Below are positions 1 to 64,000 of a stretch of DNA of 64,000 nucleotides, in pieces (the stretch's first letter is position 1; every line of letters starts with the position of its first letter). The translations under genes and the position numbers were made by a program. The notes below the pieces were generated by a model. The model ran no database searches, was not told the origin of the DNA, and saw nothing but the letters and a program-made list of their open reading frames with translations. This stretch comes from Nemertoderma westbladi (Eukaryota > Animalia > Xenacoelomorpha), in the NCBI GenBank assembly GCA_032718475.1, contig JAUCBJ010002907.1, positions 31,356 to 95,355 of the forward strand, read 5' to 3'.

Positions 1-924
1 ATTGGTTGCACAATAGGGTCGTTCTACTATGGAATCTTTGTATACGCCGACGACATCCTTATTTTATGTCCATCTATTTCCAGTCTGCAGTACATGGTTG
101 ACATCTGTCAGAGATTTGCGTCCGACAATAAGTTATTAAAATTCAACACTAGTCCCATTCCGACAAAATCGAAATCGAAATGCGTTCCGTTTGTTTCAGA
201 TTGGTCTGAACTGGCAGCCAAAATATCCCTCAATGGATCGCCATTACCATGGGTAAAAGAGGCGCTCCATTTGGGAAACCTATTAGATTACAAATGCAAT
301 TTGGTGTCAGATACAATTAGGAACCGGGGACCATTTATTGGTAAAATTAACAGTTTACGTCAGGAATTTTATTTTGAGGACCCTTATGATATATGTGAAA
401 TTCAACGCATTTATTCGACTGCGTTTTACAGAAGTAGTATATGGGATTTATTTTCGGATATGTGCAATATAATTTTTACAGCTTGGAACATCAATGTTAG
501 GCTTATTTTTGGGTTACCCTTTAATTCACATCGTTATTTAGTTGATAAAATTTAGGCATCCTATGATAATGTTACTATCTCGTTATTTTCAGCTTATTAG
601 TAACTTGTTTAAATCCTGTAAACCTAGTTTACTTTCCTTAACGGAGTTATGTTATTCAGACTGTGAAACACGTTACACAAAGTTCTTGTGTGAAACACAA
701 GTTCTAATTTAAGGAACATAGCTAATTCTTGTGGTATCTCGTGCTTAAATAATCTTTCACTCAGCATAATAAACGCTCAAAGTTACGCACCGTTATTACC
801 TGGTAATAAATGGAAACTCGATTTTTGTAGGGAACTTATAAATATTCGAATTGGTAAATTGGAAGTTGATTATTTAGATACGGATGAGCTGTCAGACATT
901 TTGAAATATATATCTACCAGTTAA
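1..924 (+). mobile_element. Degraded non-LTR retrotransposon (LINE) RT C-terminal fragment
   Basis: Frame 1 from base 1 reads IGCTIGSFYYGIFVYADDILILCPSISSLQYMVDICQRFA...KSKC...HLGN (RT YADD motif plus thumb). Stops and frameshifts follow 555. Confidence 0.85.
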
Positions 925-1084
925 AAGTGCTATAAAATTAATATCTATATAATTTCATATTTACTTAGTACTTTCCTGTTATATACTGTTTACGGTTAAT
1001 TAATAATTTACCGGTCGTAGCTTATATCTTATCCTCCTTACCTTACCTTTATTACTTGTGCTTATTCTATCTATAATTTGTCCT

Positions 1085-1450
1085 TGACTGTACTTGTACT
1101 TGTACTGTGCTGTACTGTACTTGTACTGTACTGTGCTGTACTGTACTTGTACTTGTACTTGTACTTGTACTTGTACTTGTACTGTACTGTACTGTGCTGT
1201 ACTTGTACTTGTACTGTACTGTGCTGTACTGTACTTGTACTTGTACTGTACTGTGCTGTACTGTACTTGTACTTGTACTGTACTGTACTGTGCTGTACTT
1301 GTACTTGTACTGTACTGTGCTGTACTGTACTTGTACTGTACTGTACTGTACTGTACTGTACTTGTACTGTACTGTACTGTGCTGTACTTGTACTTGTACT
1401 GTACTGTGCTGTACTGTACTTGTACTGTACTGTACTGTGCTGTACTTGTG
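1085..1450. repeat. Compound microsatellite (CTGTA / CTTGTA / CTGTG units)
   Basis: Directly visible low-complexity array; it accounts for the three spurious ORFs at 1078-1487. Confidence 0.95.
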
Positions 1451-2014
1451 TCTTCTGATAATGTATGATAATAATAATAATAATTGATAGATCCCAGACA
1501 GATTATCAGTGGGAAGGTTTAAAAACTTTAATGGCCATTATCTCAGAATGACAATTTTCATCTTTATTTTTTTTTATTATGTATTAATATCATGAATAAT
1601 AATTTATCTTTAAAGTACTACTCTTCTGCCATTTGTCAACCAAATCTCATGATTCAAAGGGTTTTGGCAGTTATTTAACATTTATCTTATAGAATTTTTA
1701 AAAAATGTGTAATCAACTTTTTTTAATCAAAATTATTACATTAATATTAGCTAATTAAAAATTCTATAAGATAAATATTGTAGATTTAATTGTGCTTAAT
1801 CTAAAAAAGTTGATTTCGAGAAATTTGGACCAAGATTGATGGACTAGTAGTGTTTTTAGTGAAAAAATAAATTCCACTAGGGGGAGGCTAAAATTTTCAA
1901 ATATACAATTTTGATGTCTTAATGCCACTGTAACCTGTATTATTGACTTTTTTTTGTTATGGTTAGAGACTGGGATGCCTTAATTCCATTGTAACCTGTA
2001 TTATTGACAACAGG

Positions 2015-3020
2015 ATGACTTCTGTTGTCATCTTTATTGACTTCTTAAAGGCCTTCAATTCTGTCTATCGGTCACTTATGTTCAGCATACTTTCATTATA
2101 TGGGATTCCTGATGAAAGTATTACAGCAATCAGATCAGTATACGATGGTTCGACAACATTTGTGTCTACTGTTGACGGTGACGCAGAACCATTTGCAGTG
2201 TTATGGGGCGTCCTTCAGGGAGACACACTTGCACCATTATTGTTCATAATTGTGGTTGTCTATGTTCTAAGCATGTCCTTAGATCATCATAATGATGATG
2301 GGGTGATGATAACTCCACCTACTGGCTCCAGAAGTCGAGGAAATCCAGCCAAGTACCTAACTAACTGATCTTGACTTTGCTGATGACTTAGGAGTACTCT
2401 CAGAATCATTAGAGGGAGCCCAACGGCTCCTCAGCTCATTAGAACAGGCTGCTTCTAGTGTTGGTCTTTTTGTTAACTCCAAGAAGACCAAAGTTGAATG
2501 AATCATTCAAAAATGAATCATTGAATGATTCGGGTTTCCAAGATGTTGAAGTCACACAGAATACATAGGAAACTTGTCCATTTATTTAGAGCAGCAGTAG
2601 TTCCAGTACTCCTCTACGGGAGTCCATGCAGGGCTCTAACTGCTGAGGACACCAAATCTCTGGATGGCACATTCACAAGAATGCTACGCCGGGTTCATTG
2701 TGTCAAGTACAATGCACACATATCCAACCAGACACTATATAACATTGGAGGTGTCTCATTGGTTCCTCCAAGCTTGACACTATAACAAAGCCGCCTCCCC
2801 TTTGCAGGACATTGCTTTCACCGTGAAGACCAGCCTGCGCACAATCTTGTGCTTTGGGAGCCCCATGGAGAAAATATGCATGGTGGACAGACCATGACTT
2901 TTGTGAGACACCCCTTAAAGGACCCTGGCCTTGAAGATGCGGATAATGTCGCCAAAGTCATGGGGTATAGGGGGTTGTGGTGGTGTAACTTTGTTGATAA
3001 GCCGGCATAGCATTCTTAAT
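2015..3020 (+). mobile_element. RTE-like LINE RT, degraded, 5'-truncated
   Basis: Motifs FIDFLKAFNSV, GVLQGDTLAPLLF, DLDFADD, LFRAAVVPVLLYGS, FAGHCF; several stops and frameshifts. Confidence 0.85.
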
Positions 3021-3884
3021 GGATGCTGCATTGAGCTAATCAATTGTGGATTGCATGGTGGTGGAAAAATATTTTCGTTTAAGCCAGCATAGAATCACAA
3101 CGTGCAGCTTCAATCCAGCAGACCAATTTGTAGTAGTATTATAGTATACAGCAATGCCACTGTGACCTGTTTTTTTCCTCAAATAGATGATTGGCATTGC
3201 TGATATGTCCAAATTGGATTTGCATCAATATGATATATTATTATATTATTATGTGTTGGTACATTCGAGGTGTTGGTAAAGTCGAAGTTTTGGTAGATGG
3301 TTGAATAGTTGAAAGGCATTGGCAGTATTGTCACAATAACATGGTACAGGTGGTGGTATCATGGTTTATATGACATGCCGAATCTATTACGGATTCTAAT
3401 ATAAAGGCAAAACACCGGTTTCTGATTTATTTCAGCACAAAGATACTGCTTGTAATACGAAACCTGTTTTTGATGTTTGTGTTGCAACAAAATAATGGCA
3501 TGACATTCGTATTTTATTGATTTCATTAAATTTGTTAGAAATGAAACATACCTTTGCATTGCCAGTCCCAGAATTATATTATTTGCAATAAATTACCTTA
3601 AACCATTTTCCATCAACTGTAAGAGTTAGAATCAGTTCAGCGACACTGATTGATTTATGTTTATGGTATTGAGGTCACTTACCATTCATTATACACTTTA
3701 TGTAATAACGAACCTGTCTTTATACTGGGTAGTTTTTTTCTACAGCTGAGGCCGGCAAAAACAGTATGGATGGATGTATGTTTGTATGTATGTATATATG
3801 TTTGTTTGTATGTATGTTTTCTTTGTATCAAACCAACAAATTGCTTCAAACCACTTGTATGTATTGACTACCTGACACTGACTA

Positions 3885-5360
3885 CCATTAGCTGATCCTG
3901 TTTACATTCCTACTGATGGACTCTGAAACCAGCTGACTATTGTTAGCTGATCCTGTTTACATTCCTACTGATGGACTCTGAAACCAGCTGACTATTGATA
4001 GCTGATCCTGTTTACATTCCTACTGATGGCCTCCGAAACCAGCTGACTACCGACTTGCTGATCCTGTTTACATTCTAGCTGATGGACTCTGAAACCAGCT
4101 GACTATTGTTAGCTGATCCTAATTACATTCCTAGTGATGGACTCTGAAACCAGCTGACTACCGTTAGCTGATCCTGTTTATATTCCTACTGATGGCCTCC
4201 GAAACCAGTTGACTAACGACTTGCTGATCCTGTTTACATTCCTACTGATGGCCTACGAAACCAGTTGGCTACCATTAGCTGATCCTGTTTACATACCTAC
4301 TGATAGACTCTGAAACCAGCTGACTACCGTTAGCTGATCCTGTTTACATTCCTACTGATGGACTCTGAAACCAGCTGACTACCGACTTGCTGATCCTGTT
4401 TACATTCCTACTGATGGACTCTGAAACCATCTGACTATTGTTAGCTGATCCTGTTTACATTCCTACTGATGGACTCTGAAACCAGCTGACTACCGACTTG
4501 CTGATCCTGTTTACATTCCTACTGATGGCCTCCGAAACCAGCTGACTACCGACTTGCTGATCCTGTTTACATTCCTACTGATGGACTCTGAAACCAGCTG
4601 ACTACTGTTAGCTGATCCTGTTTACATTCCTACTGATGGACTCTGAAACCAGCTGACTACCGAATGCTGATCCTGTTTACATTCCTACTGATGGACTCTG
4701 AAACCAGCTGACTATTGTTAGCTGATCCTGTTCACATTCCTACTGAAGGACTCTGAAACCAGCTGACTACCGACTTGCTGATCCTGTTTACATACCTACT
4801 GATGGCCTACGAAACCAGCTGACTACCGTTAGCTGATCCTGTTTACATTCCTACTGATGGACTCTGAAACCAGCTGACTATTGTTAGCTGATCCTGTTTA
4901 CATTCCTACTGATGGACTCTGAAACCTGCTGACTATTGTTAGCTGATCCTGTTTACATACCTACTGATGGCCTACGAAACCAGCTGACTACCGTTAGCTG
5001 ATCCTGTTTACATTCCTACTGATGGACTCTGAAACCAGCTGACTATTGTTAGCTGATCCTGTTTACATTCCTACTGATGGACTCTGAAACCAGCTGACTA
5101 CCGACTTGCTGATCCTGTTTACATTCCTACTGATGGCCTCCGAAACCAGCTGACTACCGACTTGCTGATCCTGTTTACATTCCTACTGATGGCCTCCGAA
5201 ACCAGCTGACTACCGACTTGCTGATCCTGTTTACATTCCTACTGATGGACTCTGAAACCAGCTGACTACCGACTTGCTGATCCTGTTTACATTCCTACTG
5301 ATGGACTCTGAAACCAGCGGACTATTGTTAGCTGATCCTGTTTACATTCCTACTGATGGC
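3885..5360. repeat. Tandem minisatellite, 55/56-bp unit, about 26-27 copies
   Basis: Unit GCTGATCCTGTTTACATTCCTACTGATGG(ACTCT/CCTCC/CCTAC)GAAACCAGCTGACTA(TTGTTA/CCGACTT/CCGTTA); unit starts at 3891, 3946, 4001, 4057 and onward. Confidence 0.95.
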
Positions 5361-5578
5361 CTTTTTACAAGCTATTTTTTCCCGGTTTATTTATTATTAT
5401 TAATGTCCTTACCATTCCACGTTCCAAATTTTATGGCTAACTTACCTTATACAGTAATAATAAATTTTATAATTTCAATTATTTATTGACCCATGTTTTA
5501 ATTTAATTATGTCATGTTTTACTGTACATCATGCCTTACCTGGCTTAATAAATAAAATATTATTATATATTATTATTA

Positions 5579-7300
5579 ATGTTACAGAACATCACCAAGC
5601 CTTATAATAATATAAAAGAAAACATACAGAACTCATACAGAAGTCCCTCACAACTGTTCGTAGATAATGAGACCATGTTGTCAGAAGAAGGATCAACACA
5701 GGGTGACCCACTGGCACTGGCGATGTATGGTGTTGGAACCCTTCCACTAATAAAGCTAGTTGGTAAAGTGGCACACGATTTCGATCAGGAAAAATTTGGA
5801 GAAGACAAATTGTTGGAAAAATGGTTTGCAGATGACGGAAATGCAGCTGGCCGACTACAAACACTTCTAACATACTGGGATGCCATATGCTCCTATGGAT
5901 CTGGATATGGTTATTCCCCGAACGCAATAAAAACATTTCTTATCGTGAAGGAAGGATTCATGAGTGAAGCTAAAACCATTTTTTGCTAACACTGGCGTAC
6001 AACTAACCGAAGGTCATCGTGTACTAGGCTCAGTTATTGGGTCCCAATCATGCTGCTGCGATTATGTAAATGACAAAGTCCATTCACTGTTCGATCAGCT
6101 GGTTAAGCTTTGAGAATTCGCTGTAACAGCTCCTCAGCCATCCTATAGTTGTCTCGTGTATGGCATGCAACCTAAGTTCAACTTCTTATCAAGAACAACC
6201 GCAATGGACCAAATTGATGACTTGATTACAGATCGGGTCATCCCAACAATAACAGGTAATCCCCCTCCAGGTAAAATACAGCGCGATCTCCTCGCTCTGC
6301 CTGTCAGGGAGGGAGGTCTAGCAATATGAAGATCAACCGACCTTCATCAGGGTATCCAGGCGTCCCGAAGATTATGTGCACCACTCTTTAGTGTTGACAC
6401 CTGCTTAGAACCATCAGAAGCTCGTACAAAACAACAAACAATCCGCCGAGAAATAAAGAAAGATAGAATGGAAGGTGCGAAGGAAAGCGCCGAGGGCATC
6501 CACAGTAAGCTTAGCAACAGCGACCAATATCTCGGCCTACTATCTAAGGAAAAGGGAGCCTCTTCCTGGCTGACTGCACTACCCCTGACCAAATACGGTT
6601 ACTCCCTACAAAAAGAAGCCTTCAGGGATGCACTGTGCTTGCGATGTGGGTGGCAGCCACCAAAGCTTCCTTGACTATGTTCATGTGGGGCCGAACACTC
6701 CATATCGCATGTCTTACACTGTCCAACTGGTGGATACCCCAGCCTTCGCCCTAATGAGGTAAGGGACTACTTGGTGGAGTTATTAGCCTAGGTTTCTCAT
6801 GACGTGCAGATAGAACCGCACCTTCAACCAGTGGGTGGTGAGCAGTTTAAACTGAGTAGTACCTCAACAGACCTGGATGCTCGACAGGATATGGCAGCTT
6901 CTGGCATATGGGGTGGATGCTTCCAGAAGCTCTTCATAGATGTGAAGGTTTTTAATCCACTTTGCGCATCCAACCCCAAGTCGATCAATGCAGCTTATAC
7001 AAAGCATGAAAAGGATAAGCGCCGCAAATATGAAGAACGGATAACTCTCATTGAACACGCATCCTTTACTCCATTTGTAATGTCAACTACAGGGGGAGCT
7101 GGCAGGGGTGCTCAGGCACTATTAAACAGAGTAGCACTCCTTCTATCAGCAAAGCGGGGTGCTCCTTACTCCAAGACAGTGTCATTAATCCGTACACGTT
7201 TAAGCTTTGCGCTATTGCGCTCTTCAATAATGTGTTTGCGAGGCGCACGAGAACCACGATTAAAAGGGTCCCGATTACTCTGCAGGAAACCGGAATACAG
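5579..7300 (+). mobile_element. CRE-like non-LTR retrotransposon (RT + CCHC + restriction-like endonuclease), pseudogenised
   Basis: SEEGSTQGDPLALAMYG, WFADDG, GASSWLTALP, FRDALCLR, CSCG..HVLHC..GG..LRPNEVRD, EPHLQP, FIDVKVFNP, EKDKRRKY, FTPFVMSTTGG. Multiple in-frame stops; A-rich tail near 7460-7485. Confidence 0.85.
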
Positions 7301-7960
7301 GCACCTACATCTGATGCCTGTATTAAAGTTTAAACAAGTCATCACACTCACTCCACAACTCGAATTCCCTTCACCATTCAACTTTTACTGTAGCTACTGT
7401 AGACATACATATTATTTGTGTTAGTATATTAAAGTTCTAGTTGGAGTTGCTGAGGTAAAACAATTAAAAAGAAAATAAAAAAAAATTTAGATTTTAAAAT
7501 CGGAAGTATATTTAAAATAATATACAATATAAATTATGTTAAAACAAATATTATACATTTAAATTGATAAAAAAGAAAACTGAAAATAATATTTTAAAAT
7601 AATATTTTTACATGAAAAATTGACACTAGTTCACCAGGAACTGGTGTGTTATAGGTACAGCCCCTTCAAAATTTTTAATATAGCTACAGTAGTTTATGCT
7701 ATTTTTTTTAGAACATATAAGCGGTACTAGTAGCATATATGTCTCAAATTTTTAATAATTTTTTTATCACCAATTTTCATTTTATTTATATATCGTCGAT
7801 TGTATAAATTTTTGTTATCTCGTGTTTTTTTATGGAAGCTAGTAAAAATGTAAAAGCAATACATAATTATCCCCCCCATAATTGCAATGCAATGTTATGC
7901 AATTTGAACGTGTGTACTAACATACCTTACCTATGCCGCAAATCAAATATTCCGTAATTT

Positions 7961-7989
7961 CTAATTCGTAACTTTATTATTTAATGCAG
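7961..7989 (+). promoter_or_regulatory. 3' splice acceptor (branch point CTAAT, T-rich tract, CAG) of the neuropeptide exon
   Basis: CTAAT at 7961-7965, then ...ACTTTATTATTTAATGCAG|GT. The in-frame stop at 7962 closes the frame upstream and there is no ATG after it, so splicing is required. Confidence 0.65.
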
Positions 7990-8462
7990 GTGGTTCACTC
8001 AGCAGTTCTCGAGAAATAACTAATGACAGGGATCGCGATGTTTCAACAATTTTAGCACGAAGATTAGTAGCGGATTTTCTACCCCGCCTCTACTTTATTC
8101 GAGATGGTGAGAGTGGCGATGGATACCCAGGAAACCAGCCAATTCACAGTGATTCTTTAGTTGAACACTCGCAAATCTTTTTCAGAAACGTCCCAGGATT
8201 TGGCAAACGAAACGTCCCAGGATTTGGCAAACGAAACGTCCCAGGTTTTGGCAAACGAAACGTCCCAGGTTTTGGCAAACGAAACGTCCCAGGTTTTGGC
8301 AAACGAAACGTCCCAGGTTTTGGCAAACGAAACGTCCCAGGTTTTGGCAAACGAAACGTCCCAGGTTTTGGCAAACGAAACGTACCAGGGTTTGGCAAAC
8401 GAAACGTCCCGGGGTTTGGCAAACGAAACGTCCCGGGGTTTGGTAAAAGAACAACATTCTGA
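7990..8462 (+). CDS. Terminal coding exon of a multicopy amidated neuropeptide precursor: 11 x NVPGF-G-KR (predicted NVPGFamide)
   Basis: Frame 3: GSLSSSREITNDRDRDVSTILARRLVADFLPRLYFIRDGESGDGYPGNQPIHSDSLVEHSQIFFR-(NVPGFGKR)x11-TTF*. Units start at 8187 and recur every 24 nt to 8427; TGA at 8460-8462. All unit differences are synonymous in this frame. G-KR is the amidation donor plus dibasic convertase site. Confidence 0.88.
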
Positions 8463-8765
8463 GAATGACAAATCAAACCTACTTGGAACAGGTTAATAGG
8501 TAACTTGGGGTGCATCCAATGGTATTCTCACATTGATTTACTTTTCATTCGTCGACCCAACAAATTAAACTAAATTCGAGTTATTCAAAGAAACTGCAAC
8601 ATTATTTGGTTTCAATATTATATATTTTGCTGTTGTCATTTCGTGGTTTTGTGATAGTGGAAATTTGGAATGATATTATTATTAATATTATGATTAATTA
8701 ACCTACAGCTGATTCAGCTTACGCTGTATCAGTAATAATTTATGGTTGATTTGTTTACATCCAAT

Positions 8766-8771
8766 AATAAA
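8766..8771 (+). promoter_or_regulatory. Candidate polyadenylation signal AATAAA for the neuropeptide transcript
   Basis: AATAAA about 300 nt after the stop, followed by GT/T-rich sequence (TTTGTTTATTGTTATTTT). Confidence 0.35.
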
Positions 8772-10391
8772 TTTGTTTATTGTTATTTTCGTACAAATTG
8801 TTAAATCACTGACAAAAAATAATATCCACAGAAATTACTAGTGTTTGTTGTCTGAATTGCATGATCAGGTAGATGTATATAACTTATCAGTTGATTCTGA
8901 GTCAGAGTCATTATCGTGTATTAAGATTCATTAACATATGATTTGGCAAGCAATTAAGCATTATATAAACGACGTACAAATTCGACAGGTTCAAACATAT
9001 AACTTACGGATCCATAATGATCCAGGTTCCAGGTCCAAAGAATCCCGTTATCTCACTACATGTAACTCTAGCTGTGGCGGTTAATTCAAAGTGTTGTGTT
9101 ACTCTACTCTCACTACCAATAATTTCATACATGACCACAGAACCAACAAGGCTTAGGATGACATTTGCATAGCACCTCATATTTCGGTGCTGTAGCATAT
9201 GCTCATAATTAATTGTGTAAATGCGACAAGTATCCCCACTGTCTTTAATTATGTTAAAAAAGCTTAATAAAAAAACAACGAAATTTATAAAACGTATCTT
9301 TATTCAATATATGTTTTGCATAACTATAATTCTGTAATTGAATAGCTCCAAAACAGCTCGGCCGGATGGTATTAATGTAGAACAAGTTTAACAATGAATC
9401 CTGCCGTTATTTCCAACACAACTTTTTAATTTATTATAATTTCGGTCGCCTTCAGGGCTCTTTATCAAAATTACCAGCAAATATTACCCACAAAATTACC
9501 AGAACCTACTGCACTAAAATATAAAATCAAATCTACAAACAGAATTACTGAATTATCAGAATACAGTAATTATAACTTATAGCATCAATAATGCTAGTTG
9601 TTCTAATATAGGTACGACAATGTAGTAATTAAGGAAGGTCTGTGTATGTGTATTCTACTGACATATCATGATATGCATAACAACAATATGACTTTAATGG
9701 AAGCAATAACAGCTGAAGCCTATACGCCATACAAATGACAGACTGCAACTGGCTTAGACAACAGGTAACAGTGTAAGTAATGTGAGCATATCACAGTATT
9801 ATATTAATGTTACAGGCACCCGAATAGATAGTGGTTGAAGATTCAAATTTATATCACACGGCCTGACTGCAACTGAGGACTGTATAATTAACCCTTACAA
9901 CTGTAACCTATGAACAACAACTTCTATATGCCCATCACTGCCGCATTTTAATTGTGATAAAAACGCAAACGGGTTAGGATGAGTATGAGGAGGTTGAACT
10001 GTTGAGAATATCGCAGGCAAACTTGGTCAGTAAATCTAAGATCTAAACCACCGGCCATCTTTTAACGGGTATGAAGGACGTAAGTTTTCTTAATACTATG
10101 TTTTCTTGGAGTTTTTCTGCTGATAAAAAGCATCGACTTTCTTTGGCTTAGAATGGTAAAAAGCATCGACTTTCAAAATCTTCCTTTGGCTTAGAAGTAA
10201 AAATTCAAGTAAAGTAAATTTTCTTCGGCCATTAGACAAGGGATTACTGAAAACTTATTTCCAGTGTGGTACCCCCAGCAATATATACTCCCCAGAGGAA
10301 ACTCCAATACTCATTTAGCACCATTTAAGAATGCAAGGCAGATATGCCCTGGCTAGTCCCTAAGGCATTCATGCTGAAAGAAACTACTCTG

Positions 10392-14639: not shown

Positions 14640-15443
14640 CTTCATTAGTTAGATATGGCATCTAAGGAAGATTAGTAAAGCCAGCGATAAAATTTTATTA
14701 CTGCGTACGTTTCGGTTTAATAACACAAACAATTATCGATGCTAAAATAATGCGAGCTAGAACTGTCAGACCGGGACTACAAACAATTTAAAAAAAAAAT
14801 TTACAAAAAGCAGAACATTTAGCGACAACTAAGAAGAAAATCAGTCAGGATTTAAATAGTACCGTAGCTATGAATAGGGATTATATTGAAAAGAGGCCTA
14901 TCAACAAAAACTATCTTTACTACAGGAGTATGAGTGGAATATAAGTAATGAGATCATACTTGACAGAATGATTGAAAACTGCTGAGTCAACGGTTGGACT
15001 AAAACGGCCTGTTGAGTAAGAGATGCCAGTGATGCTTTGCATATTGCAAAATGTCTAAGTCCAATATAGGAGTCAGTACAGACACCACTGGAAAAGTAGT
15101 AATATTCACACGCATGTGTTGGGGCAATTTGTCTTTATAACTAAAATTGAAGAAATATAGCAAGGCGGGTTAAATATAAATACTATACGTAATAATTGAA
15201 TGTGACCAACGTAATTAATTTAGCTTTCACCAATAAACCATGATGGGTAGTTAAAGGGTAGTTCAGAGATAAGATTTCGGCTTTCTGGAGAATTTTCACT
15301 ACAAATGGAATATTCAAGTTCAAATTCACCTCTATATATTGTATACAAATATTTAATTATGTGCAATTTAAAAACAAGCTGTTGCAATGGCAAACTCACA
15401 TCTCTCTAGGGGTCCTACTCTACTGGCCCTTTTCAACTTTTAA

Positions 15444-16883
15444 CCCTATTAGTACCGGGCTATAAAATGTTGTACAAATACCGGGGGGGGGGGGGGGGGG
15501 GGGTCATATTGACCCCCCCCCCATCTAAAATCTACAAATTTTTACGGAAACGTTTGATTTTTTGTTTGTACGTAGGTATCACTAGTCTGGATACGACCGA
15601 AAAAAATTTTTTTCGAAAAAATGTACTGGGGTGGTTATATTGCAGCACCAAAATTACAAGTAGTGCACAATTTTCACAAAATTTGAAAGTTACATTTTTC
15701 GGCTAATTGCTTTTCAATACAGGTTTTCTGGGGCGCAAAATAGATTGGAAAATATTTAAAAATAACATGGTTACTATAAATGGCTGTTTAGTCCTCTCTG
15801 CGTAGGAAAAAAATGAAAAAGACAAGTAACCAGCACTTTTCAGTTGAACACAAAATTTATAAGTCACTTATACGATGCTATAAATTCACATTTTTAGGTT
15901 TTGATTTTTTTCGATTTTTTTCACATTTTTAGATTTTTGGGCGCTGATTCTAATGGAATACATTTCTAATATGCCAGATCATTGCAACTTGTATTTTTCG
16001 GCGTAATTTGGCAAAGTTTGGTGCTAGCACCAAATTTCGTACCAATCACCAAAAAGTACAAGTTTGCGATGTCCAGTGCTGTTTTATTGATTCCATCGGA
16101 TTCAGGACCCTCGCAAACCCGTATAACGCAAGAAACAAGATAATACTATCTTCTGATCAATTTGCTTATTTTCCAAAATTTGGTGCTGGCACAACAATTT
16201 TCACCCACCGGCAAAAAATACAAGTTTGAAAACTCTTATGAAATTTTTACTGATTCCATTGAATTCAGAACCCTCACAAACCCGTATAACGCAAGAAACA
16301 AGGTGACACAATCAATTGATATATTTGATGGTTTTCAAAATTTGGTGCTAGCACCACATTTTGCACCCACTTACGAAAAATACAAGTTTGAAATGTCTAG
16401 TTCAATAAATATATATTCCATTGAATTCAGAACAGCCATAAACCTCTAAAACGCAAGAAATAAATTGTCACAAGCAATTTTATATATTGAATGGATTTTC
16501 AAAATTTGGTGCTGGCACCAAAATTTGGCACCCGTCGAAAAAAACAAGTTTGAAATATCTAAATCAATTTATATGAATTCTATCCAATTGCTAACACCAA
16601 AAAACTGGTGTAAATCAAAAATAGAGATGTTTCAATTCATATTTAATGAAATGTAATTTTCAAAAAACGTCTCAAAAAAAGTGCCAAAAGTAGTGTTAAA
16701 ATATGGTGCTATAACTCGAAAACTACCCAATATTTTTTAAAACGGTTTTCACTACTAGGAAGACAATAGATTTTTAGGAAAAGTCATAAAATTTCAGATA
16801 CTCTACTGCGTTTGTTTCAGAATTAAAATAAAAAAACCACGGGGGGGGGGGGGGTCATATTGACCCCCCCGGGTTTAATAGGG
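15444..16883. mobile_element. Non-autonomous piggyBac-like element (1.44 kb)
   Basis: TTAA|CCCTATTAGTACCGGG ... CCCGGGTTTAATAGGG|TTAA; subterminal GGGGTCATATTGACCCC palindromes at both ends; internal imperfect tandem repeats; no transposase. Confidence 0.85.
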
Positions 16884-17154
16884 TTAATGAATGGGAACTC
16901 AAACGGATTCTGGTAAATGCAACACGAAGGTAATCAGGTATGTAAATGTTTGATTTATATGCACGATGTTGAGTTAATGAGGGTTAATAAGAGTCCTATA
17001 TAAAGTAAACTTACTCGCACTTAGGTTTACTTAAAATTCTACTACTACTACTACTAATATAATCGCCTATATAGCTGTATTGATATGCTACACTGGCTTG
17101 ACATACATATTTATGCCACCACCACCATGCAAATCTTCAATTGACATGCCCCAA

Positions 17155-17270
17155 TGCAGCGTTCATTAAGAATGCTATGCCGGCTTATCAACAAAATTGC
17201 CCCACCAAAACTCCCTATCCCCAATGACTTTCGCGAGATTATCCGCATCTTCAAGCCAGTGTCCTTTAAG
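17155..17270 (-). mobile_element. RTE-like LINE 3' fragment (same family as 2015-3020)
   Basis: Reverse complement matches about 2915-3030 and 18930-19035 (TTAAGAATGCT.TGCCGGCTT...CCAGTGTCCTTTAAG). Confidence 0.7.
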
Positions 17271-17447
17271 TTGCGTCCAAGGACAACTCTACTACAGGAC
17301 TGGCCTAGGCTAAATTCGGACTCAGCTAGCTAAGTCTGGTTTTCATTAAAGGTACCGGTACTCCAGTAGGTACTTTACTATTGCTGCAGTACTGCAGTAA
17401 CCTGGTGGGGTGGTAGTACAAATTAGTACTAGTAGTAATACAGTATT

Positions 17448-18789: not shown

Positions 18790-18929
18790 CAGTTAAACTG
18801 CATGCAGGTGTAAAGTACAGAAGTACATACAGAACTAAACTACTGTAGGACTAAACTACTACAGGACAGCCTGTGATTCCTTACCGGTAAGTACTACTAG
18901 TATCGGCATGCTGCATTGCAGCTGCATTT

Positions 18930-19452
18930 TTAAGAATGCTGTGCCGGCTTGTCGACAAAATTGCGCCGCCACAACTCCCTATCACCCATGACATTTGCTA
19001 GATCATCCGCATCTTTAAGGCCAGTGTCCTTTAAGATGCGTCTCAAGAAAGTCATGGGCTGTCCACCATGCTTATTCACTCCATGAGGCTGCCAAAGTAC
19101 AAGATTATGCACTGGCTGGTCCTCATGGCGAAAGCAATGTCCTGCAAAGCGGAGGCGATTTTGTTCTAGTGTCAAGCTTGGGGGAACCAATGAGACACCT
19201 CCAATGTTATATAGTGTCTGGTTGGAGATGTGTGCATTTTACTTGACACAATGAACCCGGCGTAGCATTCTTGTGAATGTGCCATCCAGAGATTTGGTGT
19301 CCTCAGCAGTTAGAGCCCAGCATGGACTCCCGTAGAGGAGTACTGGAACTACTGCTGCTCTAAATAATCGGACCTTAAGTTCCCGATTAATTCTCGGTGA
19401 CTTCCAAATCCTGGAAAGCCTATTCAAGGCTGCCCATGCCTTTCCCTTACGA
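18930..19452 (-). mobile_element. RTE-like LINE 3' portion
   Basis: RLSRIWKS...KVRLFRAAVVPVLLYGSPCW and RLRFAGHCFRH...LVLWQP; paralogous to 2525-3020. Confidence 0.85.
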
Positions 19453-19850: not shown

Positions 19851-22468
19851 TATGTTAGCATACATCGAGCTCGCTCGCTCGCACAGTGGGCCAGGGGTGG
19901 CCAAAATACCCTAAAATGAAGTTTGTTTTAGTGGTTTGAAACATATCCTATCTTGTAGACCACAACAAGTACATCAATGTACTTACTAATTACTACTTAC
20001 TAATTATATATATGTACTGTATATGTATATTACATCTTTATCGTTGAGTCGGACATTGTCACGCTCTCGGTAAAGTTGTACATGTACATAGTGTAATTAC
20101 GTTTTATATTGGTATTAGGTTAGCGTAGTGTAATATTGTATTTGTAACCAAGTAACATAAAGGACCCCCTTGGAAATAAGCTGCAAAGCTTTAGGGGTAA
20201 TCCTATATGTTATGTTGGACAATACCTTTATACCGGTACATTGTTTGGTGTATTTGTTATTGTTTTTACATAATGTATAAATAAATCTATCTATCTATAA
20301 TGGGATTCTACTTCAGCTTAGTTGTTATTTGTGATCAGTGATGGGCTGAAAATTTAATCAGCTCTCTAAGCTGGAATATAAAACAAATGGCCATAGAAAC
20401 CAGGTTAGTTGCCTCAATGTAAAACTCTGTTGCTTACCATGATTGGCTGATATTATCATGAAAGCAAAAACCCTTGGCCCTTAGTATAAATCAACACCCT
20501 TGCAGTATGATTCATCATTCATTAGGAGCAACAATTATTCAATGTAATATGAATAAGTTATTTTATGATAAAAATCTCAAATACATTCTGCAAAATACTG
20601 TGAGACTTATTCACTCACAAAGTTTGGTAAACAAATTGCTCATAATATTTTGTGCCATGCTAAACACATGTGCCACATGCTAAAAGTGGCACCTATGTGC
20701 CACTAGAGAATTCTAAACCGTTTGTAATAGAATCAGCACCTTTGAAAACGGTTATATTGAAAAATATCGACACATGAAAAATATCGAGAGTAAAAATAAC
20801 GCGAGTAAAAATAACGAGTGTTGAAAAATAACGATAATATCGAGAGTTCAAAAAATATCGAGAGTAAAAATATCGAGTGTAAAAATATAGAGAGTAAAAA
20901 TAACGAGTGTTGAAAAATATCGAGAGTAAAAATATCGAGTGTTGAAAAATATCGAGAGTAAAAATATCGAGAGTAAAAACATCGAGTGTTGAAAAATATC
21001 GAGAGTAAAAATATCGAGTGTTGAAAAATATCGAGAGTAAAATATTGAGTGTTGAAAAATATCGAGAGTAAAAATATTGAGTGTTGAAAAATATCGAGAG
21101 TAAAAATATCGAGTGTTGAAAAATATCGAGAGTAAAAATATCGAGTGTTGAAAAATATCGAGAGTAAAAATATCGAGTGTTGAAAAATATCGAGTGATGA
21201 ATAATATCGAGAGTAAAAATATCGAGTGTTGAAAAATATCGAGAGTAAAAATATCGAGTGTTGAAAAATATCGAGTGTTGAAAAATATCGAGAGTAAAAA
21301 TATCGAGTGTTGAAAAATATCGAGAGTAAAAATATCGAGAGTAAAAACATCGAGTGTTGAAAAATATCGAGAGTAAAAATATCGAGTGTTGAAAAATATC
21401 GAGAGTAAAAATATCGAGTGTTGAAAAATATCGAGAGTAAAAATATTGAGTGTTGAAAAATATCGAGAGTAAAAATAATGAGTGTTGAAAAATATCGAGA
21501 GTAAAAATATCGAGTGTTGAAAAATATCGAGAGTAAAAATATTGAGTGTTGAAAAATATCGAGAGTAAAAATAACGAGTGTTGAAAAATATCGAGTGTGT
21601 AAAAATATCGAGTGTTGAAAAATATCGAGTGTTGAAAAATATCGAGAGTAAAAATAAAGAGTGTTGAAAAATATCGAGTGTTGAAAAATATCGAGAGTAA
21701 AAATATCGAGTGTTGAAAAATATCAAGTGTTGAAAAATATTGAGAGTAAAATTATCGAGTGTTGAAAAATATCGAGAGTAAAAATAACAAGGGTTGAAAA
21801 ATATCGAGTGTTGAAACATATCGAGAGTAAAAATATCGAGAGTAAAAATATCGAGTGTTGAAAAATATCGAGAGTAAAAATATTGAGAGTTGAAAAATAT
21901 CGAGAGAAAAAATATTGGTGATGAAAAATATCGAGAGTAAAAATATCGAGTGTTGAAAAATATCGAGAGTAATAATAACGAGTGCTGAAAAATATCGAGA
22001 GTAAAAATATCGAGAGTAAAAATATTGAGTGTTGAAAAATATCGAGAGTAAGAATCATTCGTGATAAAAATAGGAGGGGATTACCAGGTGTTCCATTTTA
22101 ATATTTAACAACAATTATTATAAGATTTAGTGTGTAAAATATGCAAATGGTAATTGTATAATGAAAGCTACATATTATTATATTAAATACAAACGGTCCC
22201 AAATTAAATTGATCAAACTAAAGTTATTGAAAATATGAATGAATGCAAATTTATTATATTAAATACATACGGTTAAAAAATTAAATTGAACAAACTAAAG
22301 TAATGGAAAATATGAATGAATGCAAAGTAACTTATTAAATAAATCTCAGTTTAAAGAGTTTAGTGTATATCTTGTATTTTTTTTAATTGAAACAATATTG
22401 AGTAATTTTGTATACAGTAGTTTAGGCCTAGAGTTGTGTACAGAGTGTATCTTAGTAAAGAAACTATC

Positions 22469-23899
22469 TTAGAGTTTAAGATTTCTAGCCACGCCGTACA
22501 AATAATCTTCTATACAAATTTCACCACAGTCAAATTTGAGGCAGAGAGAGTATAGATTTCTTTCCTTTTCTATTTGTTTCTTTGATTTGACCTTCCCATG
22601 TGCCCTACATTCCAGATTCAATCGAATGTCGTGTTCCATCTTACAGTGCTCCCCTAGCAGCTGTTCAATCAATTCCCAAATTCCGGGATGGTGCTTTCCA
22701 GCAACAACATTCAGTCGATGATGATATCCTTCCTGAGCATTGTTAGTGCGGTCTATCTCTTCCGAAATGTTTCGATAAACATTCCATTCCGATGGTGTAT
22801 ACCGAGGTGTAGAAAATATTTCGCGCTTACGAACTACTTTCTTAAACTTTCCATGGCCGTACGTGGAATCAAAGTAATTGAACAGATCCTTTTAAGCGTC
22901 ACTTTGGAATAAAGGCTTGAATGCTTCAAGCTGCAGCAAAACAACTTCTTCTGGTAGAAATGCGAGTGCTATAAGTTTTCGAACACGCACAGAAAACTCT
23001 TCATTCTCCGTGTACAGCACTGACAGTCCGAGCTCCTGTACCTTGCGAAATACCGATTGACCTAAATGGAAAAGGCATCGCTGAACCTTTCCATTTTCGA
23101 AATAGGTGAGAAACGCGTTTGCACTTCCTTTTTCGAAATCCAAGTGGATTGTTATGTCATTCTTGAAGACTACATCGTTCTCTGCAGCTAAATCGAACAA
23201 AATCTGGAATACAGATTCGTAACTCTCCTGATCGTGACGTTGCATTAGCACATAAATCTGCGGGTACCAGGCATGGTATTTCTTACCAAGGATTGTACAA
23301 AGCTGTCTATTTGATCCAAATAACTTCGGAACAATTTTAAAAGTTCCATCAGCCATCCATTCATCCGTGCGACTCAGTTTGACGATATTATTATTTGTGC
23401 CAAACATTATTTTCCGGTTCCCTTCGCGGTTTTCGTTGTCATGTAAAAGGAATTTCTCACCGTCTAGGGTTTCCAGTGAAATATCATTTAATGCAAGTTC
23501 ATCTAATGAAGCAGGCTCTTTTGGTTATAGCTTGCGTTTCATGTAATTGATTTTCTGTCGGATTACAGTATCACTTGGTAGTTGTCGTTCAATAAGTGAC
23601 TCGGAATGAATCTTGTTGATTATTTGCTGGGGTTTAGCAAAGCGATTGAATTTCATCATTTCATCCAATCGGTAGTCAACAGATTTGATGCCCTGGGGGT
23701 CAGCGATGTGGGAATGCACAATATTCCTTTCATTCTTTCAAGTGTCTTGTTCAGTTGTAATTAGGCGAGCATTACACGTATTATATTGAGAGCACCTCCA
23801 GCATGTGGTTTTTGAACTTGGGTTGTAACGATCTTTTATAAATTTATAGCCATCCAAAATTAAGCATCTCTTGCCTTTGTTAGAAATGGTAAACTCCAT
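22469..23899 (-). pseudogene. FLYWCH + MULE DDE transposase, disrupted by stops and frameshifts
   Basis: LILDGYKF...WRCSQYNTCNARL...HSH (FLYWCH); WMADGTFKIVP, IHLDFEKG, CLFHLGQSVFRKVQELGL, RTNNAQEGYH. Confidence 0.88.
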
Positions 23900-24110
23900 G
23901 ACAAATATAGCTATAAATACCAACTACCAACGAAACACTAGCTACAGTACAGTAGTACCATAGAATCTAAAATAAATATAGTTTAAAAAAATATAATTTT
24001 CATAGATTCATTTTTTTGTAAAAGCGCAAGCTAGCAACATAATACAGTAGCGAGTACGATAAAAAAAAATAAAATAAACAATGTCTTTTAATAAAAATAC
24101 ATTTAAAAAA

Positions 24111-24673
24111 TGGCATTAGTGTGGCCTGGGTGCCCACTTTTTTTCCAATTTTTTCATGTGAAAGTGACTATTATCGTGAGAAGTTTTTTGTTGTAGAACA
24201 AAAAATTTACCTGACGATAAGATGAGATTTTTTTGTATGGTAGCTAGTGTTTTTTATGGAGCTAGTATTTTTAGAAGTGTGTTTTTTCCATAGGATTTAA
24301 TTGATACTAACTCACTTTCTTATTTCAAATTCATGATATTATTATCCATAGAGAACGTATAGATTAAATCAACAAATAAATATTTAAAAAAACACTAGCT
24401 AGTAAAAATTACTAGCTAGGTAGCGGTACCACATGACTCAGTAAATATTCTACGGATATTACTACTGTATAAGTTTAAATATGTTTAAAAAAAATTCCAA
24501 TTTTTTTTTACTAGCTAGTTAATAGTACTAGCTAGTAAAAAAATGAAAAAATAATAGCTACCGGTACCATCTTACTGTCAGAAGGTCAAATTTTTGTTCT
24601 AAATCAATAAACCTCTTGTTAATAGTCATTTTCAAATGGGTCAAAAAGTGGGCACCAAGGCCACACTATGCCA
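24111..24673. mobile_element. Hairpin/MITE-like element with long imperfect inverted arms
   Basis: TGGCATTAGTGTGGCCTGGGTGCCCACTTTT ... AAAAGTGGGCACCAAGGCCACACTATGCCA; inverted similarity continues inward for more than 100 bp. Confidence 0.65.
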
Positions 24674-24920
24674 AAAAAAAAAATAAAAGAAATGAATTCT
24701 GTATAGCTACCGGTATAATTTTTGTAAAACACTAGCTTCAAATGAAAAAATAGTAGCAACCACCGAAACCAATACCTACCATGAATCATTTAATATAAAA
24801 TAAATAAGTTGACAATATGTAAATAATGGTGACACTGATTTAACATACCGGTAATAAAAATAGATAAAATAGTTTTCGAAAAGTTATATTCTAGCGACCA
24901 AATACAATATACACTATTAA

Positions 24921-25573
24921 AGGATGGTTTACACGTGGCAACATTTTGTGCAACATTTTTTTATACTAGCTAGTTTTTTACTTTTTTTTTAAATGTTCTG
25001 AACATATTATCTAATCATTTAATATAAACATTTTGTTCAAGAACCATTATCATTACCACAATCTTTTAATATAAAAATTTTGTTCAAGAACAAATACTTT
25101 TTGATCTAGAACAAAAAAAAACTATCTAATTTGTTAATTTTTTTTTGTACCGACGTATGTTATCTTTGTATCACATAGGCCTATTTAATAAAATGTTCTA
25201 GTTAAAATGTTCTAGAACAAATAATATTGGTTCTAGAACATTACTTTTTACAAAAATGAATAGACGACATGTCCTTGAACATTTAAAAAAAGTAAGAAAA
25301 ACTGGCTTTGATAACAACAAAAAAACCTAATTAATTAATTATGTTCTAGAACAACAATAATTTGTTCAGAACAAAATATATAAAATAAAATGAATAGACA
25401 ATACAGTATGTTCTAGAACATTTAAAAAATGTAACAAAAACTAGCTAGTATAAACAATTTGGGATGGGAGGGGGGGGTGTGCCCACAACACAGTGCGCGG
25501 TACGTGCAAAGCACATGCACGGTACGTGCATGTGCAACTTGGTCAGAAACATGCCACATGTGTAAACCGGCCT
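24921..25573. mobile_element. PIF/Harbinger-like MITE
   Basis: TAA|AGGATGGTTTACACGTGGCA ... TGCCACATGTGTAAACCGGCCT|TAA (3-bp TAA TSD). Confidence 0.65.
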
Positions 25574-25787
25574 TAAACTTGCTTATACTTTATAAACAAA
25601 CTAAATGATCTGGAAAGAGTACGGTATTATTTCCCAGGAAACAGGTTAAACTTAAATTTATACACTATACAATACGGATGGCATTAATACACTTTCGGTA
25701 CCCTTAGTTTGAATGACCAATTTTTTTCACATGAAAAAGGCTTTTATCATTAGGTTTTTTCTCTTGTACAAATATTTGATCGTCTGA

Positions 25788-25977
25788 GGCCGCGTTCACA
25801 CTACCGAGTCAAAGTCAAAATAAAATAAATATAGTTAGCTAGCAATAATAAATAATAATACATTATGTAGGCCTAATATAATACATAAGGGCGTTCTAGA
25901 AAACAATAAATTTCTTCTGATTTGTTTTATATTTTGTCTTTTGACTTTGACTTTGACTCGGTAGTGTGAACGCGGCC
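25788..25977. mobile_element. PIF/Harbinger-like MITE, 190 bp
   Basis: Perfect TIR of more than 30 bp, GGCCGCGTTCACACTACCGAGTCAAAGTCAAA; flanks TGA/TAA. Confidence 0.8.
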
Positions 25978-27600
25978 TAACAGTAGGATGGTAGCTAGTA
26001 ATTTTCATTTTTTTTAGCTAGTGAAATAAATTAAATTTGAAAATTTTATTACAATTCCTTTTTGTGAAAGTGGTTATCATCATGAGTTTTATGCTAGAAC
26101 AAATATTTGACTTTCTTTTATTAAGATGGTAGCTAGTAAATTTGATTTTTCTTTTTATAAGATATTAAACAAACAAAACCTCTTTATAACTATTTTTACT
26201 CTCGATATTTTTACTCTCGATATTATTCATCAGTCGATATTTTTCAACACTCGATATTTTTACTCTCGATATTTTTCAACACTCGATATTTTTACTCTCG
26301 ATATTTTTCAACACTCGATATTTTTACTCTCGATATTTTTCAACACTCGATATTTTTACTCTCGATATTTTTCAACACTCGATATTTTTACTCTCGATAT
26401 TTTTACTCTCGATATTTTTCAACACTCGATATTTTTCAACACTCGATATTTTTTCTCTCGATATTTTTCAACACTCGATATTTTTCAACACTCGATATTT
26501 TTCAACACTCGATATTTTTCAACACTCGATATTTTTCAACACTCGATATTTTTCAACACTCGATATTTTTACTCTCGATATTTTTCAACACTCGATATTT
26601 TTCAACACTCGATATTTTTACTCTCGATATTTTTCAACACTCGATATTTTTTCTCTCGATATTTTTCAACACTCGATATTTTTCAACACTCGATATTTTT
26701 CAACACTCGATATTTTTCAACACTCGATATTTTTACTCTCGATATTTTCAAGCACTCGATATTTTTACTCTCGATATTTTTCAACACTCGATAATTTTAC
26801 TCTCGATGTTTTTCAACACTCGATATTTTTACTCTTGATATTTTTCAACACTCGATATTTTTACTCTCGATATTTTTCAACACTCGATATTTTTACTCTC
26901 GATATTTTTCAACACTCGATATTTTTCAACACTCGATATTTTTTCTCTCGATATTTTTCAACACTCGATATTTTTCAACACTCGATATTTTTCAACACTC
27001 GATATTTTTCAACACTCGATATTTTTCAACACTCGATATTTTTACTCTCGATATTTTTCAACACTCGATATTTTTCAACACTCGATATTTTTACTCTCGA
27101 TATTTTTCAACACTCGATATTTTTTCTCTCGATATTTTTCAACACTCGATATTTTTCAACACTCGATATTTTTCAACACTCGATATTTTTCAACACTCGA
27201 TATTTTTCAACACTCGATATTTTTCAACACTCGATATTTTTCAACACTCAATATTTTTCAACACTCGATATTTTTCAACACTCGATATTTTTACTCTCGA
27301 TATTTTCAAGCACTCGATATTTTTACTCTAGATATTTTTCAACACTCGATAATTTTACTCTCGATATTTTTCAACACTCGATATTTTTACTCTCGATATT
27401 TTTCAACACTCGATATTTTTCAACACTCGATATTTTTCAACACTCGATATTTTCGATATTTTTCATCTCGCGTTATTTTTACTCTCGATATTTTTTAATC
27501 ACGTTAATTTTAAACACTCGTTATTTATCCTCTCGATATTTTTACTCTCGATGTTTTTACTCTCGATATTTTTCAAGTCTCGTTATTTTTCACCATTACC

Positions 27601-30855: not shown

Positions 30856-31119
30856 GGGGGAACAACCGCTGGTACCACCCCGTCCTCAAGATAACTGCAC
30901 GCACGCCCCCTGGCGGCTCTAACAGCAGTGCGCTCGGGTTGGATCATTGCATCATTATATTGGTTAGAATTGCCAAGAATTAAGAATTACCTTAGCTTCC
31001 CCAATAGCGGTGTGAACTGCAAGCTGAATATATTATTATTTTGTGTATAATTGGGTTTGTTTTTATTAAGTACAATAATATGTGATATTGTTTCATTTAT
31101 GAATGAAACAATTTTATAT

Positions 31120-31585
31120 CAACTGCAACTTCAAGGCCAGTGTCTTTTAAGATGCTTCTGAAGAAAGTCATGGGCTGTCCACCATGCTTATTCACTCCAT
31201 GAGGCTGCCAAAGTTCAAGATTATGCACTGGCTGGTCCTCACGGCGAAAACAATGTTCTGCAAAGCGGGGGCGGTTCTGTTCAAGTGTCAAGCTTGGGTA
31301 GACTAATGGAACACCACTAATGTTGTATAGAGTCTGATTGGAGATGTGTTCATTATACTTCTCACCATGAACCCGGCGCAGTATTCTTGTGAAAGTGCCA
31401 TCCAGAGATTTGGTATTTCTCTGCAGTTAGAGTCCAGCATGGACTACCATATAAGAGTACTGGAACTACTACAGCCATAAATAAGCGAACCTTAAGGTTC
31501 CGTTTTATTCTATGGGACTTCCAAATCCTGGACAGACTATTTAACACTTACCATGCCTTCCCCTTACGTATCCGAAGGTCGTCAC
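31120..31585 (-). mobile_element. RTE-like LINE 3' portion (another copy of the 2015-3020 family)
   Basis: LSRIWKSHRI...VPVLLYGSPCW; FAEHCFRREDQPVHNL. Confidence 0.8.
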
Positions 31586-33155: not shown

Positions 33156-34013
33156 TTAAAGTCTTTGAACTACAAAGTTGTTAAAAGGCTTCTGAGAAAT
33201 GTTACAGTATATCCGGTCCTCTACGTTGACTATAACTGTTAAAATATTTATCAATTTATGCTTATAAAAATATGGAAATGGAACAATTGGCTGATATTTA
33301 AAATTGCCATCGAGGATAAGGTGTGGTGAAACCAGCAACCGCATAATATCTGATACTGTAGACAAAATTATCACCATCGGATCCCCTGCCTGCTGCGGGG
33401 AATAACTAATTAGCCTCTCATTCTGCCAACCATCACCGGGATTCGAGAAACGTCCTCTATGAGTGAAGGTCAATGCAGCAGGAATTTCGAGAATGTTGTC
33501 AACCTTCGGTACACTCTTTCGCCTATGTCGTTGATATGATCTCTGAACTGATGAGAATGCAGGCAGCTTATCTTCAATTGCTTGTCGCTGGAATTCCGGT
33601 AGACCACCATAAGCAACTTGAATTTCAGCTAAGGAATCGTTATACGCAGTACGAGGCCGTTTTCCAGTTGTCTGTATAACTTGCCTCGCTTTCCTGTCGA
33701 TTTCTTTAGCGACAGCAATTTCCTTATCAATACCTAAACAGTAATGTGGACGATTGGGATTGACCGGATCAGTGACAATTCGTTCACCTTTAACAACAAG
33801 GCTCGGTGGTGGAGGCAATGTGTTGTCCACATCTCTCGCCTCCTTGCACAGCTTGCATTTATAGTAAATCGCATTCTCACTTTTAGCTCGAAACATAAAC
33901 TCTAGAACCTTGCCGTTTTCGATAGGATAACAGATAAGTGGATTTTTCCCAGTTTTTGTTCTGCGCGTGTAGTCTGAAAAGGAACCGTAGTCTGCTGGTA
34001 CTGCACCCGCCAT
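33156..34013 (-). pseudogene. N-terminal part of a MULE-type transposase (zinc-binding region plus first catalytic Asp), truncated
   Basis: YYKCKLC...PHYC zinc-finger-like motif, RQ...KRPRTAY helix, LILDGNFKYQP (compare DGTF..P); adjacent TTTAGAACTAA(TGAC/AGTCC) array at 34155-34358 resembles a modular TIR. Confidence 0.6.
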
Positions 34014-34154
34014 ACTGCACTACAAAACAAAGTTTAGAAGTTAGGCCAACTCAAGAGTCAGAAAGTGCAGTGCAGATTAAGAGCACAATCAAAGACAATG
34101 CAGTACCGGTATTTTACTGTACTGCTTTGATTTTAAATTCCCCCCTCTACTGGT

Positions 34155-50898: not shown

Positions 50899-51008
50899 TT
50901 ACATTAAACTGGTTAGCTACATTTACTTCCGAAAAGGAATCTGTCTGGTTAGAAGTATTGGGGCTACCTAGGTGCCATCCCCATCTGTGGTTCCTTGAAA
51001 ACCCAAAC

Positions 51009-63935: not shown

Positions 63936-64000
63936 TTCAATTTTGTATAAGTTTACTGCCTGAGCAGACCTATCAGCCTATGTCCTTATAAATTAAGTAA

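Follow-up and report, generated by a model that had tools for sequence, protein, structure and literature searches.

Molluscan APGWamides and the RGWamides of annelids, nemerteans and brachiopods are cut from precursors in which an acidic pro-region is followed by a spacer-less tandem of short xPG-aromatic-G-KR units. The APGWamide precursors hold ~8-17 copies, and their four-residue peptides end in an amidated aromatic residue, the C-terminus being GW-amide in APGWamide and RGWamide alike. Two C-terminal Cys 20-30 residues apart, with a phase-0 intron between them, complete most of these precursors, as PMC8557429 describes. The GKR that closes each unit is read in parts of PMC6909153 as a convertase site with Gly as the amide donor. 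Lineage-specific multi-copy peptides are common in surveys of new taxa: parts of PMC6188537 report 14 clade-specific peptide types in one such survey, and parts of PMC5996578 report 13 new peptides in another. We describe here an exon, found in a stretch of 64,000 nucleotides (the window), whose nearest known precursors appear to be the molluscan APGWamides and which we do not place in any named family; it is probably an undescribed member of this lineage-specific kind. From its sequence features, the array at 8187-8450 very probably belongs to the terminal coding exon of a secreted multi-copy amidated neuropeptide precursor.

The array, on the forward strand, consists of 11 tandem units of 24 bp, and all 11 translate as NVPGFGKR, that is, the peptide NVPGF, an amide-donor Gly and a dibasic KR. 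Tandem Repeats Finder (TRF) gives it a period of 24, 11.1 copies and 0% indels. The coordinates, frame, copy number, unit variants and missing Met are all as the preliminary description had claimed. The left edge of the array is an Arg codon and the right edge is the last KR, so that 10 copies are flanked by a dibasic site on either side while copy 1 is preceded by a single Arg, not KR. A repeated peptide with a Gly amide donor and dibasic flanks, the general feature of multi-copy amidated precursors, is what the array presents. Six of the 11 units are identical at the DNA level. A motif search of the whole window allowing up to 3 mismatches returns 11 matches, all inside the array; the dispersed 24-mer and the frame-indifferent variation that would have spoken against the gene call are not seen in the window.

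Is the peptide reading constrained, or does it merely happen to be open? Five columns of the unit vary, with six distinct substitutions (2 transitions, 4 transversions), and all six are synonymous in the NVPGFGKR frame against 0, 0, 1, 3 and 0 of 6 in the remaining frames, which bears out the earlier claim of silent-only variation. With this mix of transitions and transversions, all six would be silent in this frame with a probability of 3.1e-4, or of 9e-4 if any of the six frames is allowed, in statistics that are post hoc and based on six substitutions; they point to coding constraint on the peptide frame. By chance, 0.019 of shuffled units and 0.021 of random 24-mers of the window offer a stop-free frame with a G[KR][KR] site. 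None of 14 other tandem repeats of the window, picked out of its 58 TRF rows and with a period that is mostly a multiple of 3, has more than one G[KR][KR] per frame in any frame.

The array sits in a Met-less stop-to-stop frame at 7965-8462. A candidate branch-like CTAAT (7961-7965) and a predicted 3' acceptor ending in TGCAG (..7989, forward strand) would open the exon in phase 1 to the peptide frame, and at this very site GC content steps from 0.30 in 7930-7989 to 0.43 in 7990-8049. The 65 codons that follow (7990..8186, forward strand) form a unique, open pro-region, with GSLSSS at its start, one RR, 10 D/E and the single Arg as its last residue; it occurs only here in the window. A stop-free run of 65 codons at 7992-8186 is reached by 0.018 of shuffles, and each other forward frame has five stops there. 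The small residues GSLSSS may close a signal peptide. A second acceptor candidate, TCTTTTTCAG (8166..8185, forward strand; a pyrimidine run followed by CAG, phase 2), would split the Arg codon ahead of copy 1. Both acceptors are predicted, and we favour 7989 because of the open frame and the GC step. At the other end, the last KR is followed by the tail TTF and a TGA stop at 8460-8462 (together 8451..8462, forward strand), a stretch that contains no GT. A candidate donor, GTAAAA (8443..8448, forward strand), is predicted in phase 1 within the last unit, overlapping the final G-K codons; of five Cys-bearing open stretches after AG sites up to 30 kb downstream of it, none resembles a precursor tail. 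The whole exon contains neither Cys nor Trp. An AT-rich putative 3' UTR extends over 8463..9271 (forward strand) and carries poly(A)-type signals, one ATTAAA (8564) and two AATAAA (8766, 9266), and no second copy of 7490-9400 exists elsewhere in the window. The preliminary description had thus been right about the ~65 open codons before the array, the candidate CAG acceptor at 7989, the stop 3 codons past the last KR and the precursor-type architecture of 11 peptide-G-KR units; the single Arg before copy 1, the acceptor candidate at 8185 and the donor candidate at 8443 are additions to it.

But where is the start of the gene? The signal-peptide exon that had been expected upstream did not emerge: when positions 1-7950 were scanned for phase-1 exons of the ATG-hydrophobic-GT type, no credible candidate came up. 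All that the scan gave derives from a GTAT microsatellite at 3766-3856 and was rejected for that reason, with 2 donors against a control mean of 2.1 per block in 15 blocks. The upstream DNA in the window is mainly retroelement debris and satellites. It includes, in the putative upstream intron, a decayed non-LTR retrotransposon (5552..7490, forward strand) with ORF pieces and an A-rich tail at its end, 0.5 kb ahead of the acceptor at 7989. No Pfam family is matched in this element, which by its motifs is presumably CRE-like. The first exon, with the start codon and the signal peptide, would sit upstream of the window.

A word-indexed protein search returned six weak matches among 3636 candidates (E 0.02-0.6), each through a single GFGKR whose source we take to be an insect NPLP1-like precursor, and none among 4981 longer candidates. 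A phmmer search against 1.84 billion representatives gave 613 matches at E <=0.001, of which the best 150 were examined. Of these, 127 are unrelated repeats lacking the three or more G[KR][KR] sites that the other 23 have, so the phmmer E-values reflect periodicity. Repeated PGFG with GKR is absent from the best 150 of the 613, and 12 of them are APGW/RPGW/KPGW-type precursors. An exact look-up did not find the exon protein in the protein collection, and a Cornifin Pfam match to the exon was discarded as a repeat artefact below the cut-off. In the ESM Atlas, all 10 among the matches listed are peptide-hormone or neuropeptide precursor clusters (0.82-0.87), a lead only, with a low recognition score (1250) and matches spread across many families. 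The protein searches turned up no relative with the same peptide or pro-region, and hence no cross-species conservation that would confirm function.

The phmmer matches also include several unnamed proteins of other design: P0069 carries TVHGV-GKR 7-8 times, P0142 carries SPFL-GKR 9 times and P0018 has IPYF between basic sites. P0126, from Nematostella, joins 11 copies of YVLGR-GKR to an EDRF1-like model, perhaps through an error in the gene model.

At the DNA level, two tandem units at a 24-bp period occur neither in metagenome contigs nor in viral contigs, blanks that are weak evidence because short-read assemblies may collapse such arrays. A scan at a 21-bp period with W/F/Y allowed found five loci, three of them APGW/RPGW precursors that serve as a positive control. 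These three (L001, L003, L005) are animal APGW/RPGW-amide precursor exons in metagenome contigs, with Cys after the array in each. The other two are mimics of two xPG-aromatic-GKR units, such as off-frame bacterial repeats can produce: L004 is a GC-rich two-copy match, and L002, an off-frame repeat in a bacterial-type contig, was rejected as stop-broken and overlapped by a longer ORF in another frame.

How close, then, is the exon to the APGWamides? It has their multiple spacer-less copies behind a pro-region, here 11 copies with Phe as the aromatic residue, and the APGW-type precursors among the best 150 matches (for example P0034 from Plakobranchus, P0058 from Pomacea and P0063 from Physella) are the nearest pattern, as had been proposed. 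The further suggestion that it may be a divergent relative fares less well. All 12 APGW-type matches have PGW at the end of the peptide, against GF-amide here, and the peptide has five residues (NVPGF) instead of four. The two-Cys tail is found in 7 of the 12 and has no counterpart here (0 Cys, tail TTF), and in place of a phase-0 intron between Cys codons the nearest donor candidate is in phase 1, inside the last unit. We keep the exon out of the APGWamide family because the Trp, the two-Cys tail and the phase-0 intron are absent, although the Cys criterion is softened by the 5 of 12 matches that carry fewer than two Cys. One precursor, P0058 (named cerebral peptide 1-like), ends 3 residues past its last repeat, like this exon, while its pro-region has no similarity to ours (E 6.6).

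The softened criterion matters for an alternative that leaves the gene call as it is and makes the exon a diverged APGWamide/RGWamide orthologue, acting on an RGWamide-type GPCR, in which Trp was replaced by Phe, Asn was added and the Cys tail was lost or moved downstream via the donor at 8443. We consider this unlikely. It can draw on the xPG-aromatic-amide core and the spacer-less GKR tandem shared with the nearest real precursors, on a tail that is as short in P0058 as here, on a first residue that is variable in bivalve APGW peptides (A/R/T/K/S, in parts of PMC5996578) and on the X-Pro tetrapeptide that trimming of the Asn would leave. It has to account, however, for a Trp that none of the 12 APGW-type matches lacks, for an array followed by neither Cys nor a phase-0 intron, and for a pro-region unlike that of P0058. 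No PGF variant is found among the precursors in the supplement of PMC8557429, where all 27 PGFGKR places belong to phoronid allatostatin A, and a likeness of three residues between short peptides is easily convergent.

That phoronid peptide deserves a closer look. In the same supplement, some copies of phoronid allatostatin A/buccalin (xDSRFFGPGF-amide) end in PGF-GKR, as here. They are, however, 10-mers with a variable x-G-F end, a D-x-R-F-F/Y core and spacers, whereas the NVPGF unit is an invariant pentapeptide that agrees with allatostatin A/buccalin only in its last three residues; the PGF likeness is likely convergent. Acoel MxGFG(amide) and the achatins (GFGN) resemble the unit in being short, multi-copy, clade-specific GFG peptides, as far as parts of PMC6188537 describe them, but MxGFG begins with Met and retains a second Gly, and the achatins are non-amidated tetrapeptides, while NVPGF-G-KR is neither a GFxx tetrapeptide nor a Met-x-GFG peptide. 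With each of these three (phoronid allatostatin A, acoel MxGFG and achatin) the NVPGF unit has no more than two or three residues in common. The cnidarian (staurozoan) RPRSamide, with 11 copies and GKR, and pQPPGVWamide have the same GKR-ended multi-copy design in the relevant parts of PMC6909153 but are unrelated in sequence, and the main text of that paper contains no PGF peptide.

Has the peptide already been named elsewhere? This, too, would leave the gene call intact, and we think it rather doubtful. Such a name might stand in a figure, in a supplement or in work on another taxon, for instance on echinozoans, ophiuroids, hemichordates, flatworms, cnidarians or nematodes. Against this, none of the main texts searched, among which few subscription journals figure, contains an NVPGF neuropeptide, VPGFamide, PGFamide, VPGFGKR or PGFGKR, and protein collections that do contain APGWamide precursors hold no NVPGFGKR precursor. 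Nor is there such a precursor in the five supplements searched: that of PMC6188537 has no VPGFG and no PGFGK, that of PMC9525235 has no PGFG, that of PMC9793003 has no precursor of this type, and the 2 VPGFG places in that of PMC8557429 are GPCRs. In the supplement of PMC6425005 there are at most 3 PGFGK per file against the 11 expected of an 11-copy precursor, with 12 of 36 places listed. Three chance resemblances were set aside: a PGF-NH2 literature match is YPGF-NH2, an endomorphin variant; a wasp VPGFA match is orcokinin; and GGVPGFVGAR-amide (PMC9525235) is a different peptide. Like the preliminary description, which recognised no described family, we find none in the protein searches, DNA scans, full texts and supplements covered. 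Provided that the exon encodes a precursor, the chances that its sequence defines an undescribed, lineage-restricted family are slightly better than even.

A secreted product need not be a neural one. The array could encode a basic Gly-rich repeat protein of an adhesive or cement, or a gland or venom peptide with neuropeptide-type processing, and a precedent for the former is the polychaete cement protein Pc-1, which has basic Gly-rich repeats with GKK. On the latter, there is a review of neuropeptide mimicry in venoms (PMC13311285). We regard a non-neural product as improbable in view of array bounds that fall exactly on Arg and KR, a G-K-R kept in all units, a unit without Tyr, Cys or Ser, and an acidic pro-region with an RR site. 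A further alternative is a once-functional precursor exon now orphaned and silent, severed from its start by upstream retroelements. The lack of a first exon within 7.9 kb, the retroelement that ends 0.5 kb ahead of the acceptor and the exclusively transposon-type Pfam content of the window would fit it; but the frame is intact, the newest unit variants are also silent, and the window starts only 8 kb upstream of the exon, in a type of genome whose introns are commonly long and full of transposons, so that we give a silenced exon little credence. Finally, a non-coding minisatellite with a peptide reading by chance is largely refuted and hardly believable, for although TRF lists 58 rows in the window and mimics of two units do arise by chance (L002, L004), the L002 mimic is stop-broken, there are 0 indels in 11 units and no second array in the window, and the three tests multiplied, with independence assumed, give 0.02 x 3e-4 x 0.018, about 1e-7.

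The remainder of the window can be described briefly. Pfam searches of 247 ORFs of at least 50 aa outside masked repeats, plus 8 selected longer ORFs, gave transposon-type or sub-threshold matches only (the transposon-type families being RVT_1, MULE, FLYWCH, THAP, Pao and DUF6451), and there are no tRNA or Rfam matches in the window. At 20750-27600 a 6.8-kb Mutator/Foldback-type element lies inside a 154-bp tandem satellite, with an 8-bp target duplication; its inverted arms (20757-22073 and 26190-27576) are 1.3-1.4 kb long, built of 16-17 bp repeats and 87% identical, and broken FLYWCH and MULE frames lie between them at 22469-23923 on the reverse strand. A 287-codon frame at 33156-34019 (reverse strand), with a weak RYYR-CCHC match and FLYWCH/MULE-like Atlas neighbours, is probably the N-terminal part of a second Mutator-type transposase. 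An intact Pao/BEL frame of 2422 codons at 56709-63977 (reverse strand), with DUF1759, Peptidase_A17, an integrase zinc finger and DUF5641, is 39-45% identical to its best 120 matches, of which the named ones come from anthozoans, sea urchins, tunicates and a nemertean; it is likely a recent insertion. These matches suggest that the host is a marine invertebrate with no closely related annotated species. Two near-complete LINE-type elements with few stops and with endonuclease and RT domains occupy 42750-45645 and 48010-53012 (both reverse strand), the latter also with an ORF1-like frame of 667 codons. A single family of non-LTR retrotransposons has left at least four decayed 3' fragments (1967-3064, 17119-17290, 18907-19451 and 31115-31568), which are 80-88% identical and match RVT_1 and DUF6451. 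Inverted copies of a 1.3-kb non-coding element with three 162-bp internal repeats, 85% identical, lie at 15439-16747 and 45659-46929, and a 55/56-bp satellite of ~27 copies at 3878-5362 contains neither a long open frame nor a G[KR][KR] reading.

If the exon is the end of a neuropeptide precursor, how would its product be made? A phase-1 splice would join a signal exon onto 7990, and in secretory granules a convertase of the PC1/PC2 type would cleave after every KR. As in the maturation of amidated peptides in general, which includes carboxypeptidase E and PAM steps, carboxypeptidase E would then strip the basic residues and PAM (PHM+PAL) would convert the Gly to the amide. Each precursor would yield 10 NVPGF-NH2 (calculated MH+ 532.29), while copy 1 would either be released at the single Arg or be N-terminally extended. 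Monobasic cleavage occurs where a second basic residue sits 3-6 positions upstream, according to part of PMC8557429, and copy 1 may remain extended because only a His, no basic partner, is found 3-6 positions upstream of its Arg. N-terminal trimming at Asn is known from cnidarians (PMC6909153); stripped of its first Asn, the peptide would be VPGF-NH2, a tetrapeptide protected by X-Pro and resembling APGW-NH2, and by this analogy the mature form may be VPGF-NH2 instead of NVPGF-NH2. The tandem array would raise the peptide dose per precursor, and the identity of 6 of its 11 units would fit a recent expansion in which all surviving changes were silent. The receptor would most likely be a class A GPCR, through which the peptide would modulate neurons, muscle or cilia. 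Amidated aromatic C-termini are typical of ligands of the protostome RFamide/Wamide receptor group (PMC8557429), a group to which its receptor may belong if the host is a protostome.

What would such a peptide mean? We see an even chance that NVPGF-amide/VPGF-amide is the founder of an undescribed family, with an orphan GPCR to itself, in some marine invertebrate lineage that has been poorly sampled; in its boldest form this reading would make it an F-amide offshoot of the APGW/RGW-amides, a Wamide-to-Famide switch within the protostome RFamide/Wamide receptor expansion. The locus reveals no new kind of mechanism. It does illustrate that whole neuropeptide genes lie concealed behind a minisatellite label once repeats are masked and ORFs are called from an ATG, and that purely silent variation from unit to unit can give them away. 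NVPGF-amide is also a cheap-to-synthesise ligand for receptor deorphanisation and for peptidomics in a seemingly unsampled lineage. Activity on a receptor of the RGWamide type would make it a natural Trp-to-Phe variant within a family that keeps Trp in all members compared, and would offer a test of joint change in ligand and receptor.
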